A stretch of DNA of 64,000 nt, taken from contig JANWWR010000006.1 of the NCBI GenBank assembly GCA_025055835.1, positions 59,120 through 123,119 of the forward strand, read 5' to 3'. Below, piece by piece: positions 3,321-32,059 of this stretch. A program made the translations under genes and the position numbers. Under the pieces are notes generated by a model. The model searched no databases. It saw nothing but the letters and a program-made list of their open reading frames with translations, and was not told the origin of the DNA. The stretch comes from Gemmatales bacterium (lineage in GTDB: Bacteria; Planctomycetota; Planctomycetia; Gemmatales; HRBIN36). Numbering within the stretch: the first letter of the stretch is position 1; the number at the start of each line of letters is the position of its first letter.

Positions 3321-3548
3321 GGGTCGGTCCCTCCACGAACGGGTCTGCGGGATAGCGGACGAGACGGGCCTGGGTCAGAGGCGGCGAGAACCGTCTTGCG
3401 ATCCGGGCCGGACCATAGCAAGCGTCTGCCAGTGATGCCAGCCCAACTGGAAGACGGCGAAGCCGCTACGGCTTGCGCGCTCTCTCCGCCAATTGCGTCG
3501 GAAGCACATCGCTACCTACAATTGCCATAGGCGGGGGAAGGAGAGGGC

Positions 3549-28019: not shown

Positions 28020-30524
28020 TTAATGCCGGAAGAGAAACTCCTTGGAATTGATCAAAGCCCATTGCACGTCTTCCCAGGCTTTTCGCTTGTCCGGCGATTT
28101 CGCCAGGTGTTCCGAGATGGCCTTGACCTCAGGCTCCTGCGGCGGACGGGAGAGCGTGGCGAAATAGAGTTCCTCGATGATCTCCGCGTCCGACTTGTTG
28201 GCTGCCATCAGCTGCCCGATACGGTTGTTAGGGTTGCGGAGCTTCTCGTGGATGGTCGGTCCGTTGATCAGCTGGAGGGCCTGGGCGAGATTGCTATCGC
28301 TCTCCCGCTCGCACTCGCAGGCCAGTTCCCGAGCCGGTTGGCCGAAGGTCTTCAGGAACACGTGATTAATCTCGCCATCCGGCAGCTGGGTAGCCCGCGT
28401 TCCCAGCGGCAGGCCGGGGAACTTCTCCGGTACGGCCGTGGCAGCGCAGATGGCATCCAGCAACTGTTCCGCGGTATGCAATTTCGTCACCGCGTGGGAG
28501 AAGTAACGGTTGTCGTCCTTGTTCGTCTCATTGGTTGCTGCGCTAAGTTGATAGGTGCGCGAGTTCATGATCGTGCGAATGATGTGCTTGACGTCGAAGC
28601 CATGAGCCACGAAATCCTTGGCCAGGGCGTCAAGCAATTCTTCATTGCTGGCCGGGTTGGAATCGCGGAAGTCGTCCACGGGATCAACAATGCCGCGTCC
28701 CATGAGGTGGTACCAGATGCGGTTGACGGTAGCCCGAGCAAAGTACGGGTTTTCCGGGCTGGTCAGCCAGGCGGCCAGCACTTCGCGGCGGTCTTGCTTA
28801 GATTCCATCGGGGCCGCGTCACCGCCAGGAAAGCGCGGCGGCATGGGCTTGTTGGTCCGCGGCTGAACCACTTCGCCGCTGCGGTCGACGAAAATCAACT
28901 CCGAACCCGGCGGCGGATTGCCCTCCCGAGGCCGATCCTCGCTCGGATCACGCATCTGCTTCACCCGTGCGAAGAATGCTGCCAAGCTGTAATAATCGTC
29001 CTGCGTCCACCGCTCGAACGGGTGATTGTGGCACTTGGCGCATTGCATCCGGATGCCGAGGAACAACTGGGCCGTGGTCTCGGCCAAGCTCGTCGGATCC
29101 CGAGCGATGCGATAGTAGTTCGCTGGCGGATTGGCGTAGGTGCTGCCCCCGGCGGTGATAATCTCCCGCACGACTTGATCGAAGGGCCGGTTTTCCTCGA
29201 TGCAGTGACGTAGCCATTCCTGGAATTTGTGGACTCCCGCCAGTTGGATGGTCTTGCGATTGGAACGCAGCACGTCGGACCATTTGAGCGTCCAGAAGTC
29301 CGCATACTCTGGTCGCTCCAGGAGCTTCTCGATCAATTTCGCTCGCTTTTCCGCTTCCTGATTCGCCAGAAACTCACGGGCTTCCTGGGCCGTCGGAATG
29401 ATGCCGCACAAATCCAGATAGGCACGGCGGAGGAACTCTTCATCGGAGCAAAGCGGCGACGGCAAGATGTTGAGCATCTTCAACTTCTTGTCCACCAGCT
29501 GGTCGACGTAGTTGTGCTCTGGCGGATTGGACCAAACGAACTCGGCCTTGGGTTTGAGGTAGGTCAGCCGGATCGTGACCATTGTTTCGAGATAGCGCAC
29601 CAGCACGGCCACCTCGCCGGGCACCTTGAACTCGGCAAGGCCGGTGCGGCTCACGTCGGCAACGCCAGGATCGCTGCTGCTGAAATTGGAAAGCCAAGTC
29701 ACGTCACGGACCGACCCGTCAGCGAAATAAGCCAACACGGCCAATTGCTGAGAGCGAGCGGGATGCAACTGCACGCGGTCGCCGGGAAGCACTTCAAGCT
29801 TCTGCAAGGCCGGCAAATCTTTGGGGTCGTCCTTCAGCCCTTGGCCGATCCACGCGGCCAGCACTTCGTGAGGCAGCGAACCGGCGGCGAAGCGTGGCCC
29901 GCCCTCGTGCGGAACCCGACCCAGGGCCTTTTGAATCACGAGGCTGGAATCAGGATGGAGGCTGGCGGTGCGTCGGCCCAAGGCGTCCCGGCTGAGTTGG
30001 ATGAAGTCGGCGTCGGGATCGTAGCCGCGAAGGCTCAAGCGAAAACCGCCCTTGCCGCTGGGTGTGCCATGGCACGCACCGGCGTTGCAGCCACCGACAT
30101 TGAGTGCCGCGATGACATCCTGGCGGAAACTCACTGGCCGAGGTTTCTCCATGTTCGCAACCGCCACGGGCACCATGATCGTGTGCGATCCCACCTGGAT
30201 TTGCACGGTCGTGGAGCCGTTGCCCCTAGGCCGCACCATGCCGCTTTCGTCCACCGAGGCGATTTGGTCAGACTCCACGCGGTAGGACGCAATCGAGGTC
30301 AAATCCCGCACCTGTCCGTCGGCGTATCGGCCCGTCACGAGAATCTGACGCATGGCCCGCGCGTCGGGCAAGGTGATTTCCTTCGGGACCACTTCGACGG
30401 CGGTGGGCTGGCCGATGAGTTCCGCCTTAGCCTCGTCGGCACGGATTTCACGGACGGTTTTGAGGCAGATAGAAACCATGACAAGGCCAAGGAAGCTAAA
30501 TCGTAGGCAGGTTGGGTAGTGCAT
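28020..30524 (-). CDS. DUF1549/DUF1553 (PSCyt/PSD1-type) domain protein with Big_2-like Ig domains
   Basis: Signal/anchor MHYPTCLRFSFLGLVMVSICL. Big_2-like segment VTGRYADGQVRDLTSIASYRVESDQIASVDESGMVRP. GGCNAGACHG. DUF1549-like YLDLCGIIPTAQEAREF. DUF1553-like CAKCHNHPFERWTQDDYY. I set the start at the ATG at 30524 because the longer track ORF (to 30773) reads through non-coding tandem repeats. Confidence 0.85.
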   Translation of the reverse strand: MHYPTCLRFSFLGLVMVSICLKTVREIRADEAKAELIGQPTAVEVVPKEITLPDARAMRQILVTGRYADGQVRDLTSIASYRVESDQIASVDESGMVRPRGNGSTTVQIQVGSHTIMVPVAVANMEKPRPVSFRQDVIAALNVGGCNAGACHGTPSGKGGFRLSLRGYDPDADFIQLSRDALGRRTASLHPDSSLVIQKALGRVPHEGGPRFAAGSLPHEVLAAWIGQGLKDDPKDLPALQKLEVLPGDRVQLHPARSQQLAVLAYFADGSVRDVTWLSNFSSSDPGVADVSRTGLAEFKVPGEVAVLVRYLETMVTIRLTYLKPKAEFVWSNPPEHNYVDQLVDKKLKMLNILPSPLCSDEEFLRRAYLDLCGIIPTAQEAREFLANQEAEKRAKLIEKLLERPEYADFWTLKWSDVLRSNRKTIQLAGVHKFQEWLRHCIEENRPFDQVVREIITAGGSTYANPPANYYRIARDPTSLAETTAQLFLGIRMQCAKCHNHPFERWTQDDYYSLAAFFARVKQMRDPSEDRPREGNPPPGSELIFVDRSGEVVQPRTNKPMPPRFPGGDAAPMESKQDRREVLAAWLTSPENPYFARATVNRIWYHLMGRGIVDPVDDFRDSNPASNEELLDALAKDFVAHGFDVKHIIRTIMNSRTYQLSAATNETNKDDNRYFSHAVTKLHTAEQLLDAICAATAVPEKFPGLPLGTRATQLPDGEINHVFLKTFGQPARELACECERESDSNLAQALQLINGPTIHEKLRNPNNRIGQLMAANKSDAEIIEELYFATLSRPPQEPEVKAISEHLAKSPDKRKAWEDVQWALINSKEFLFRH

Positions 30525-30668
30525 GGCGTACCCCCGTGAAGGACTCCATCGGTAGGCCGTGCGGCGGGCCGTTACTTCGGGCAGGGTTGGGCGAGCTTCG
30601 TTCTCAGGCTGATTATAACTGCTCGCGTTCTCTGATGCGAGACACTTTCTGCGAGTATCTGCTTTCAG

Positions 30669-30854
30669 CCTCGCTGACGCTTCGGGTTTCTGTGTCAGGC
30701 GAGCGGGGCACGCCAGTGCCCCGGTTACTCCCTCGCTGACGCATCGGGTTTCTGTGTCAGGCGAGCGGGGCACGTTAGTGCCCCGGTTACCCCCTCGCTG
30801 ACGCTTCGGGTTTCTGTGTCAGGCGAGCGGAGGGCGTAAGCCCTGCGGTCGCGG
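30669..30854. repeat. three tandem copies of a 62-bp unit, each able to form two hairpins
   Basis: The units span 30669-30730, 30731-30792 and 30793-30854. The consensus is CCTCGCTGACGCWTCGGGTTTCTGTGTCAGGCGAGCGG + variable hairpin + CGGT. Hairpin A pairs CTCGCTGAC with GTCAGGCGAG. Hairpin B is GGGGCAC-GCCA-GTGCCCC in unit 1, GGGGCAC-GTTA-GTGCCCC in unit 2 and AGGGC-GTAA-GCCCT in unit 3. Confidence 0.9.
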
Positions 30855-30876
30855 TCGCTAATTCGCTTCAGGCACC

Positions 30877-31000
30877 GGCAAGCTTACACTTGCCGCTCGC
30901 CATAGTGTATGTGCTTTCGCTTGCCGCTCGCTGTAGCGTGTGTTCACGCTTGCCGCCCGCGATAGTGTGTGTTTTCGCCTGTTTCTCAGCGTGTTATTCG
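30877..31000. repeat. second tandem-repeat family (about 30-bp unit, 3 good copies plus a degenerate fourth), preceded by a hairpin
   Basis: Hairpin GGCAAG-CTTACA-CTTGCC at 30877-30894. Units are CTTGCCGCTCGCCATAGTGTATGTGCTTTCG (30889), CTTGCCGCTCGCTGTAGCGTGTGTTCACG (30920), CTTGCCGCCCGCGATAGTGTGTGTTTTCG (30949) and a degenerate CCTGTTTCTCAGCGTGTTATTCG. The CCGCTCGC core is the reverse complement of the GCGAGCGG core in the 62-bp units. Confidence 0.75.
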
Positions 31001-31034
31001 CACTTAAGGGGCAAGCGGGCAGTTCCCCCAATCA

Positions 31035-31060
31035 GCGAGCGGGCAGCGTTAGCTGCCCGG
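31035..31060. repeat. isolated fourth copy of the GCGAGCGG-flanked hairpin
   Basis: GCGAGCG-GGGCAGC-GTTA-GCTGCCC-GG. It has the same flanks and a GNNA loop like the hairpins in the 62-bp units, but a different stem sequence. Confidence 0.7.
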
Positions 31061-31117
31061 TAGCCGACCCATAGCTATCCAGTAACCCAACCAAGAGCTG
31101 CCCAGCACCGCAAGAGT

Positions 31118-32059
31118 TTACCCCCGAAACTGCATCGGGTCCAAAACCACATGCTTGATTCGCCGTCGCTTCCAAGTGTAGGTCACATGCAATCGGCCGT
31201 CCGAGGTCTGGATGATGGCGGGATACGAAAACTCGCCCGGTTCCGTCTCGAATTCGTGGACCATTTTCCACGTCTGGCCTTCGTCCCCGGAGACAGCCAG
31301 ATTGAGCGGATAGCGATTGCGGTTGGAGTGGTTGTACACGAGAAAGAGGCGGCCTTCGCGGGTCTGCGCCAGGTCGATGCCGCTGCCGGGATTGGGCAAC
31401 ATTGTCCGCTCCGCCGGCGTCCACGTTTCCCCGTTGTCCCGCGACTCCGAACGACAGATGAAGCCGATGTTCCGCGATCGGCAGTACATGACGACCCGAC
31501 CGTCACGGGTTTCGAAAAGCGTCGGCTGAATGATGCCGTACAACTGATCTGGGACATAGATCGGTCCAAAGCGTCGCCACGTCTTGCCATCATCGTTGGA
31601 CCGTTCAACCCAGCACGCCCAGGTCTTGTAACTTTCGACGGAGGTTCCCGACAGGATGGTGCCGTCGGCCCTTTGGATCGGCTTGTTTTTGATCGGGCCG
31701 AGCAGGCCGGCGGGAAGCAGTTCCGAATCACTCCAGGTCTTGCCGCCGTCCGTCGAACGCCGAACCAGTCCCGACCAACCCCGGGGATTCTCCCCGGCCT
31801 TGTAGAAGAGAAAGAGGGTCCCCGACTTGCTGCGGAAAAGTACCGGGTTCCAGCACGGAGCACCGGGTTCCTGCGAGGCAATCTCGGGAGCCGACCACCC
31901 GCTGCCGTCGTGCCGGGACCAGTAGATCTGCACGTCCCGATTGCCCTCGTCCGACCCGCCGAACCACGCTGCCAGCAACTTTCCCGGTTCCGTCTCGACG
32001 ATGGTGGAGGCGTGACAGGAGCGAAACGGAGCATTCTCGAAGATGAATTCGCTGTGCAT
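31118..32059 (-). CDS. BNR/Asp-box sialidase-like (exo-alpha-sialidase family) protein without a signal peptide
   Basis: Four Asp-boxes: STDGGKTW, SNDDGKTW, SRDNGETW and SGDEGQTW. The N-terminus MHSEFIFENAPFRSCHASTIVE is typical of the bacterial BNR_2 sialidase-like family. I chose the ATG at 32059, preceded by GAGGAA; it lies 16 nt after the pyrK stop. Confidence 0.8.
   Translation of the reverse strand: MHSEFIFENAPFRSCHASTIVETEPGKLLAAWFGGSDEGNRDVQIYWSRHDGSGWSAPEIASQEPGAPCWNPVLFRSKSGTLFLFYKAGENPRGWSGLVRRSTDGGKTWSDSELLPAGLLGPIKNKPIQRADGTILSGTSVESYKTWACWVERSNDDGKTWRRFGPIYVPDQLYGIIQPTLFETRDGRVVMYCRSRNIGFICRSESRDNGETWTPAERTMLPNPGSGIDLAQTREGRLFLVYNHSNRNRYPLNLAVSGDEGQTWKMVHEFETEPGEFSYPAIIQTSDGRLHVTYTWKRRRIKHVVLDPMQFRG

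Follow-up and report, generated by a model that had tools for sequence, protein, structure and literature searches.

The window analysed here comprises 64,000 nucleotides (nt) of a Gemmatales bacterium (contig JANWWR010000006.1 of GenBank assembly GCA_025055835.1, positions 59,120 to 123,119 of the forward strand), with a G+C content of 61% and a planctomycete gene content of which the nearest named relatives are Gemmataceae. On a lenient map of open reading frames (ORFs), its largest gap is the non-coding stretch of 593 nt at 30525-31117, as had been recognised in a first-pass annotation of this DNA, and the gap holds tandem repeats and hairpins of which one, designated hairpin B, is the central subject of this paper. 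Two genes on the minus strand border the gap: upstream a BNR_2 sialidase-like gene (31118..32059; 313 amino acids (aa) as called in the public contig), the 3' end of which faces the repeat array and the product of which has its closest named homologues in Gemmataceae, and downstream a PSCyt2/PSD1 (DUF1549/DUF1553) gene (28020..30524; 834 aa). The limits of the gap follow from a corrected start of the PSD1 gene. The alignment of the syntenic PSD1 orthologue begins at residue 87 of the 917-aa ORF originally called (28020..30773); this call is therefore over-extended, as the annotation had argued, and the gene starts at the ATG at 30524. The analyses described below indicate that the gap probably represents a cluster of repetitive extragenic palindrome (REP)-type elements that resembles a bacterial interspersed mosaic element (BIME), i.e., a local pile-up of a probably mobile hairpin and not a purpose-built RNA gene.

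Hairpin B occurs five times in the gap, in one fixed 27-nt register that consists of the foot GCGAGC, a 7-nt arm, a GNNA tetraloop, a second 7-nt arm, and GGT. Four copies lie on the plus strand: copy 1 at 30699..30725 (GCGAGC GGGGCAC GCCA GTGCCCC GGT), copy 2 at 30761..30787 (GCGAGC GGGGCAC GTTA GTGCCCC GGT), copy 3 at 30823..30849 (GCGAGC GGAGGGC GTAA GCCCTGC GGT), and copy 5 at 31035..31061 ((A)GCGAGC GGGCAGC GTTA GCTGCCC GGT). Copy 4 is inverted and lies on the minus strand at 30874..30900 (GCGAGC GGCAAGT GTAA GCTTGCC GGT). The first arm starts with GG in all five copies, and the gap contains four different stems, namely GGGGCAC (twice), GGAGGGC (one G.G mismatch), GGCAAGT (one T.G pair), and GGGCAGC, so that the fivefold recurrence with kept flanks and different, complementary stems that had been described earlier is confirmed in a single register. 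The loops of copies 1 to 5 are GCCA, GTTA, GTAA, GTAA, and GTTA; the GNNA tetraloops that had been reported for the four plus-strand copies are thus present, and the minus-strand copy likewise carries GTAA. Copies 3 and 4 make up a convergent doublet as its left and right half, their starts being 51 nt apart. DNA folding of the single strand gives every copy a stem of 8 bp capped by a tetraloop, with energies between -12.1 and -15.3 kcal/mol and z between -4.1 and -5.7; the values of copy 1 are -12.1 kcal/mol and z -4.1. A loose pattern of the hairpin motif matched seven times in the window versus 0.58 matches expected by chance, and all five hairpin copies are found in this gap.

The first three copies are embedded in three tandem units of 62 bp on the plus strand (30669..30854), which were found in exact register at 30669-30730, 30731-30792, and 30793-30854, precisely as annotated before, with 100%, 94%, and 79% identity to the first unit. 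Each unit consists of a linker followed by one hairpin B. The linker can form a second hairpin, hairpin A (arms CTCGCTGAC / GTCAGGCGAG), which had been proposed for each unit and is real, albeit weak (-7.7 kcal/mol, z -2.2 as a DNA fold). Hairpins A and B overlap, the 3' arm of the former consisting of the conserved 5' flank of the latter (GGCGAGC, the foot) plus GTCAG; judging by the flanks of other doublets, the 5' arm of hairpin A (CCCCCTCGCTGAC) is plausibly the relic of an inverted partner copy. A second array lies on the minus strand at 30882..30972 and is built of units of approximately 30 bp that carry CTTGCCGCTCGC, corresponding to GCGAGCGGCAAG on the minus strand. The reverse-complement core that had been noted in these units is therefore present, and their number, previously given as three to four, is three (30882-30912, 30913-30943, and 30942-30972). 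Read on the minus strand, a unit consists of GCGAGC (GCGGGC in the third unit), GGCAAGC, and GAAA or GTGA, followed by CACAC-rich sequence; hence the foot, left arm, and loop of hairpin B are kept, and the CACAC-rich stretch replaces the right (3') arm. DNA folding of these truncated derivatives gave no fold. At the other end of the gap, a weak 23-bp repeat (2.6 copies, 68% identity) spans 31051-31109, and the right arm plus GGT of copy 5 (GCTGCCCGGTAGCC) returns in degenerate form as GCTGCCCAGCACC at approximately 31097, which may be the relic of a further hairpin copy beside the BNR stop codon. A CRISPR array was rejected as a description of the region, since the whole 62-bp unit is repeated including the linker and orientation is mixed within the gap, and the anatomy does not fit an iteron/origin or an integron attC site either.

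Comparison with related genomes indicates that the array is of local and recent origin. A relative with 85% identity of the BNR protein (L002) has the same gene order around a gap of 190 nt without any of the array repeats. In a strain whose BNR protein shows no difference (100% identity; contig L001), the units of about 30 bp number two, not three; here the stem of copy 4 is perfect (GGCAAGC), and the contig ends inside the 62-bp array. The local array is thus young and unstable, being absent from the gap of the relative and differing in unit count in a near-identical strain. The sequences are best accounted for if one or more hairpin elements were inserted here, followed by local tandem duplication. 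In a relative at 85% protein identity, a run of approximately 33 C residues is found just downstream of the BNR gene (L003:7040-7075), and the JGI contig ends about 45 nt later; ENA and Logan contigs with the same BNR gene end approximately 100 nt after the gene, before the C run.

Outside this locus, hairpin B was traced by scanning public collections with a family pattern that prescribed nothing beyond the flanks, the ends of the loop, and three pairs of the stem. In its fixed register the pattern matched 15 viral contigs and at least 115 genome loci, with several loci of the hairpin B type per metagenome-assembled genome (MAG). Nearly all of the genome loci among the matches listed are labelled Planctomycetota, including Gemmataceae, Pirellulales, Planctomycetaceae, Thermoguttaceae, and others. 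Four loci carry labels of other phyla; three of these (L028, L037, and L091) have unpaired arms and were discarded as chance matches, and the fourth (L066, Limnocylindrales) is fully paired. A MAG labelled Chitinophaga yielded six further matches, which are well-paired copies of the subfamily GGCATGC...GCTTGCC. The first-pass annotation had suggested a dispersal check, the outcome of which is divided: the 27-nt hairpin is widely dispersed, whereas the composite 62-bp unit was found nowhere else, a pattern for its linker (hairpin A) giving 0 matches in the metagenome collection. The family of hairpin B seems to be undescribed, although elements of this kind are well known.

The consensus of the family, of 27-28 nt, is G-GCGAGC-GGNNNNC-GTNA-GNNNNCC-GGT, from which the GCCA loop of copy 1 in the window deviates. 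Foot, loop, and 3' GGT are fixed in sequence, 127 of 138 copies have G immediately before the foot, and four stem pairs vary freely provided that pairing holds: 138 of the 148 matches listed, with many different stem sequences, are paired at three or four of the four stem positions that the pattern leaves free. Among 105 distinct copies, 91.5% of the stem cells form standard pairs versus 76.5% in shuffles, two-sided stem changes number 134 versus 48 expected, and sliding of the 3' arm by one to three columns reduces pairing to 26-53%. The claim that stem sequence changes while pairing is kept has thereby been substantiated, and it holds for the whole dispersed family, not for this locus alone. 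Similarly, the view that hairpin B is not a product of simple slippage is upheld by a fixed register common to more than 100 loci and by the four stems in one gap. A conserved T.T mismatch in the stem was dismissed as a general structural feature, since it belongs mostly to the subfamily GGCATGC...GCTTGCC from a few MAGs. This subfamily (GGCATGC-GTCA-GCTTGCC) is common to MAGs labelled 'Candidatus Kuenenia sp.' and 'uncultured Chitinophaga sp.' with a G+C content of approximately 55% (loci L022, L025, L029, L031, L042, L058, L059, L068, and others; L032, L050, L051, L065, L097, and L111); the G+C content and the shared repeat suggest that these bins are other planctomycetes with unreliable labels.

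The arrangement of the copies is also informative. Among the matches listed, neighbouring copies are convergent in 37 cases, divergent in 3, and in tandem in 11. The convergent doublets have their copies 27-115 nt apart, with unconserved spacers and halves that often have different stems, and the geometry of the doublet of copies 3 and 4 in the window matches theirs. Tandem arrays occur elsewhere in two Gemmataceae MAGs, with five copies at a period of 31 (L048) and three copies at a period of 43-44 (L088). Relative to neighbouring genes, orientation is without bias on a crude gene map, and many copies lie inside long ORFs. Some of the intragenic copies are real, as exemplified by a planctomycete uvrA gene (L079, 1789-4242, minus strand) that contains two in-frame hairpin doublets, at 2725-2817 and 3424-3516, which encode peptides of the type ...ASGGRQPPG...TGGLTPPAR... 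and constitute clean insertions of 40 and 42 aa relative to the solved UvrA structure 9gxk, the neighbouring segments being otherwise contiguous. The 3' part of the same ORF (approximately 1998-2118) contains a long inverted repeat rich in GGAGG/CCTCC that draws spurious Rfam miRNA matches. REP insertions in uvrA genes of Opitutus terrae have been described by Di Nocera et al. 2013 (PMC3733652).

Doublets, tandem arrays, and insertion into genes are the habits of REP elements, of REP doublets forming hairpins (REPINs), and of BIMEs. Like the REP, REPIN, and BIME elements of Escherichia coli and Pseudomonas that are mobilised by REP-associated tyrosine transposases (RAYTs) (Nunvar 2010; Bertels & Rainey 2011; PMC3733652), the planctomycete hairpins are short palindromes with an unpaired conserved foot, are dispersed as a family over many loci, form inverted doublets with variable spacers as well as mosaic clusters and tandem arrays, and occasionally insert in frame into genes, including uvrA. 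With 27 nt, an 8-bp stem, and a tetraloop, hairpin B falls within the 20-40 bp of REP stem-loop palindromes, and the inverted doublets and the mosaic or tandem clusters of REPs have their counterparts in the 37 convergent pairs, in L048 and L088, and in copies 3 and 4 of the window. A dispersed element similar to REPs or to miniature inverted-repeat transposable elements (MITEs) had been offered in the first-pass annotation as one alternative among several, and this alternative is now supported by the at least 115 genome loci, the doublets, and the in-frame insertions in uvrA. A difference from REP, REPIN, and BIME elements is that the stem sequence of hairpin B varies widely between copies, even within one locus.

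A candidate for the enzymatic partner of such a hairpin is provided by the class 3 HUH-Y1 proteins, a small class known chiefly from Planctomycetes, Acidobacteria, and Proteobacteria (Quentin et al. 2018, BMC Genomics 19:475, PMC6006769). Atypical hairpins whose foot reads CnGA border the class 3 TnpA_Y1 genes, the example from Planctomyces limnophilus being CACGAGC CGGAAGC GTGA GCGACGG GT (Table S1 in PMC6006769), and the family was reported in 2018 from 24 proteins (PMC6006769). A metagenome scan with the core of the P. limnophilus type detected at least 120 loci, mostly convergent doublets. One of the loci (L241) contains a 173-aa gene (677-1198) with the class 3 signatures NHVH and Y----Q and with hairpin copies on both sides, including a 37-bp tandem array. 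With five further loci that encode homologues of the L241 protein, the arrangement of a gene flanked by hairpins is shared by six loci, two of which are from Gemmataceae MAGs (L241:677-1198, L261:4001-4549, L262:4001-4534, L264:10001-10531, L270:10001-10546, and L271:10001-10522). In these six loci the class 3 gene ends within the first hairpin copy downstream, whose GTAA or GTGA loop contains the stop codon; AAC GAG CCG GAA GCG TAA, for instance, reads N-E-P-E-A-stop, the last codons and the stop being supplied by the hairpin. From the C-terminal tail of the protein (NEPEA, SEPEA, TEPRP, GERAT) one can therefore predict which sequence type of repeat flanks the gene. The protein family of L241:677-1195 comprises 3,636 clusters at 50% identity with E <= 0.001, of which 535 with E <= 1e-30, and some family members are located inside proteins of more than 1,000 aa (e.g., P0265, P0266, P0289, and P0315). 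The class 2.2 RAYT genes of planctomycetes have ordinary REPs tagged with GTAG instead.

The fixed-arm hairpin GAGC-CGGAAGC-GTNA-GCGACGG (L141-L260 and L137:1378-1435) has the same non-Watson-Crick arms across contigs of 36% to 77% G+C and occurs mostly as tight convergent doublets, approximately 30-35 nt start to start. REPs normally differ between species, which makes such a constant sequence unusual. A query of the Legionella type against plasmids detected only dispersed copies in records of Legionella adelaidensis, with no transposase nearby. The records in question (L138-L140; 'plasmids' 8, 9, and 11 of strain NCTC12735) contain housekeeping genes for ATP synthase and ribonucleotide reductase as well as lysS and mutS, next to dispersed hairpins of the class 3 type, and look like pieces of a chromosome deposited as plasmids.

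Hairpin B and the class 3 repeats of Quentin 2018 share a foot ending in CGAGC, 7 nt, a GTNA loop closed by C-G, and again 7 nt, and both are present in Planctomycetes, Gemmataceae among them, where they form convergent doublets and tandem arrays. The class 3 layout (foot CnGA-GC, arm, GTNA, arm; ACGAGC + 7 + GTGA/GTCA + 7 in P. limnophilus) is thus found in hairpin B, of which, on a strict reading of CnGA, the first foot base differs. Within the class 3 enzyme family, the gene of one relative (L273) has flanking repeats composed of GGCGAAC, a perfectly paired stem of 8 bp, and TGAA, from which it follows that perfect stems and a GGCGA-C foot occur in the repertoire of the family. On the basis of this shared architecture we infer that hairpin B is mobilised by a class 3-like Y1 enzyme. 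Unlike the class 3 repeats, hairpin B has stems that are fully paired and free in sequence, followed by a fixed GGT, and hairpins of the window type lack both the fixed, weakly paired arms and the adjacency to a gene with its stop codon in the loop. Because it departs from the class 3 group in these two respects, hairpin B appears to belong beside that group and not inside it.

Several observations weigh against a REP-type, enzyme-mobilised origin. The foot of hairpin B is G-GCGAGC, and the tag GT[AG]G or CGTC that accompanies the stem of REPs is missing; the arms of the class 3 repeats are fixed and imperfectly paired (CGGAAGC / GCGACGG or CGCGACC / GGGAGCG), and the class 3 genes examined all carry this fixed-arm type, with the exception of the L273 relative, which has a perfect stem of different sequence. 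An HUH-Y1 gene bordered by hairpins of the window type was found neither in the window nor in about 0.94 Mb of window-type loci nor in the viral contigs. The two hairpin types are also seldom present on one contig: the window-type loci (793 kb) hold 7 copies that resemble the class 3 type, and the class 3-type loci (636 kb) hold 0 of the window type. Furthermore, no target-site duplication or precise empty site was definable, the orthologous intergenic DNA being too diverged, and the genome of the window, as seen in 64 kb, holds only one hairpin cluster.

Other searches for the enzyme gave corresponding results. A search of the window for the class 3 core with 3 mismatches allowed detected nothing, a class 3 protein profile had no relatives in the viral contigs, and none of the proteins examined has a C-terminal tail that a window-type copy could encode. 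Clustering of all ORFs from the window-type loci revealed no recurrent transposase, the only recurring groups being common planctomycete paralogue families. Three individual candidates were rejected: P0323 (tail GERAT) is flanked by the related but different hairpin GGCGAAC-GCGCGACC-TGAA, the Y1_Tnp gene of L015 has a doublet at a distance of 1.5 kb but no flanking copies, and the protein of L074 has no Pfam match. A search of the viral contigs with the L015 and L074 proteins returned nothing useful.

The events that would have shaped the locus can be outlined as follows, with an order that is proposed and not observed. The hairpin elements probably fold in single-stranded DNA, where they are probably substrates of an HUH-Y1 enzyme (IS200/RAYT type) akin to class 3 TnpA_Y1 that would recognise foot and hairpin together and then cut and rejoin the DNA. 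By this reaction hairpins would be scattered through intergenic DNA, mostly as convergent doublets, and now and then inserted in frame into a gene. After divergence from the nearest relative sampled, one or more elements presumably inserted between the BNR and PSD1 genes, and local duplication, by slippage or unequal recombination, may then have generated the array of three 62-bp units and the array of three truncated copies of about 30 bp. Any effect on the transcription of the two minus-strand genes would be a by-product.

A broader proposal is that the GGCGAGC-stem-GTNA-stem-GGT hairpins constitute a distinct mobile system across Planctomycetota, in which foot, loop, and stem geometry are recognised and the stem is free to drift, with mobilisation by an HUH-Y1 or another enzyme and with co-option of some copies; we regard this as a tentative possibility on the unlikely side. 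If it were true, the peptide inserts in UvrA and structures at transcript ends or in leaders, such as this array, would be examples of co-opted copies.

A role in cis for the minus-strand transcripts, i.e., termination or pausing, a block to 3' exonucleases after the BNR gene, or a structured 5' leader of PSD1, is compatible with a mobile origin through exaptation, but as the explanation of the array we consider it doubtful. REP elements of enterobacteria have been credited with functions of this kind. Di Nocera et al. 2013 (PMC3733652) mention them as hypotheses on REPs. The array is located exactly between two co-directional genes, and stable GC-rich hairpins form on the minus strand as well. 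Moreover, a TATAAT at 30612..30617 on the minus strand, which together with the ATG at 30524 can be read directly in the sequence as annotated before, lies approximately 88 nt upstream of the PSD1 start, downstream of the array and outside it; as a possible -10 element it would provide PSD1 with its own promoter, which fits termination in the array. However, the promoter and terminator scan, which used a two-hexamer consensus for promoters, called no promoter here and detected 0 terminator-like sites on either strand of 30300-31400. A Rho-independent terminator combines a GC hairpin with a T/U run, and direct reading showed that none of the hairpins in the gap is followed by a run of T. In addition, the two genes can do without the array, since they are arranged alike in the relative that lacks it, and the family has no orientation preference relative to genes.

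The first-pass annotation had favoured a locally selected structure, possibly an independent plus-strand RNA, and an independent structured non-coding RNA with several hairpins, regulatory or protein-sequestering and with GNNA hairpins selected at the RNA level, would agree with the covarying stems, with the plus orientation of four of the five copies, and with the good folding of the region on both strands (z -5.9 on the plus and -4.7 on the minus strand). Such z-scores are expected of any cluster of palindromes, however, and the orthologous conservation and the promoter and terminator sites that would mark an RNA gene are not seen here: the syntenic gap of the relative is without the array, the unit count differs in the near-identical strain, and the scan called neither promoter-like nor terminator-like sites. 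The hairpin moreover occurs in both orientations without gene bias and in frame inside coding sequence. An Rfam scan of the whole window, a check that had been recommended in the annotation, returned nothing at the gathering threshold. In a permissive scan the only motif-related family scoring on copies of the hairpin B type was Acido-Lenti-1 (RF01687; Weinberg et al. 2010), with 13.3 bits at 30821-30847 on the minus strand and 18.2 bits in L048 versus a gathering threshold of 37; related loci otherwise gave only sub-threshold miRNA-like matches to long palindromes. The likeness to Acido-Lenti-1 concerns a short hairpin with a C-UGAC-G apex resembling the complementary strand of hairpin B, whereas the rest of the 46-nt model is unmatched. 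An RNA gene at this position is consequently very improbable.

Still less can be said for an array of binding sites in duplex DNA, for a nucleoid protein, topoisomerase, or transcription factor reading GCGAGCGG, that owes its maintenance to chromosome or promoter architecture, not to mobility. E. coli BIMEs bind IHF, gyrase, and Pol I, and GCGAGCGG occurs 13 times in the window versus 7.4 times expected, with six occurrences in this gap, but a duplex site leaves the covarying stem with its fixed loop unexplained, as well as the convergent doublets with variable spacers and the in-frame uvrA insertions, and the clustering of ORFs linked no candidate binding protein to the locus, which makes this explanation extremely unlikely. 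A private variable number tandem repeat, produced by replication slippage of a chance palindrome outside any wider family or selection, is given next to no credence, since the tandem nature of both arrays, the copy number difference between strains, and the confinement of the 62-bp linker to this locus in the metagenome comparison stand against a hairpin B found in exact register at more than 100 other loci across the phylum, with covarying stems, and against four stems in one gap, a variety that one slipping unit cannot generate; as a mechanism that amplifies units locally, slippage stands.

With a cluster of REP-type mobile hairpins as the preferred reading, a conspicuous structured gap would be explained as selfish repeat DNA, and the start of the adjacent gene has been corrected to 30524. 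The work also provides a searchable signature (GGCGAGC, GGNNNNC, GTNA, GNNNNCC, GGT) for a hairpin that is common in Planctomycetota, and would tie it to the little-studied class 3 HUH-Y1 family, which is far larger than the 24 proteins of 2018. A cognate enzyme, if found together with its hairpin, would offer a clean system for studying how Y1 enzymes read a stem of free sequence. For annotation and assembly, the gap illustrates that GC-rich repeats of this type mislead ORF callers, which read through them, and that assemblies tend to break at such repeats, as in the public contig of the near-identical strain that stops inside the array.

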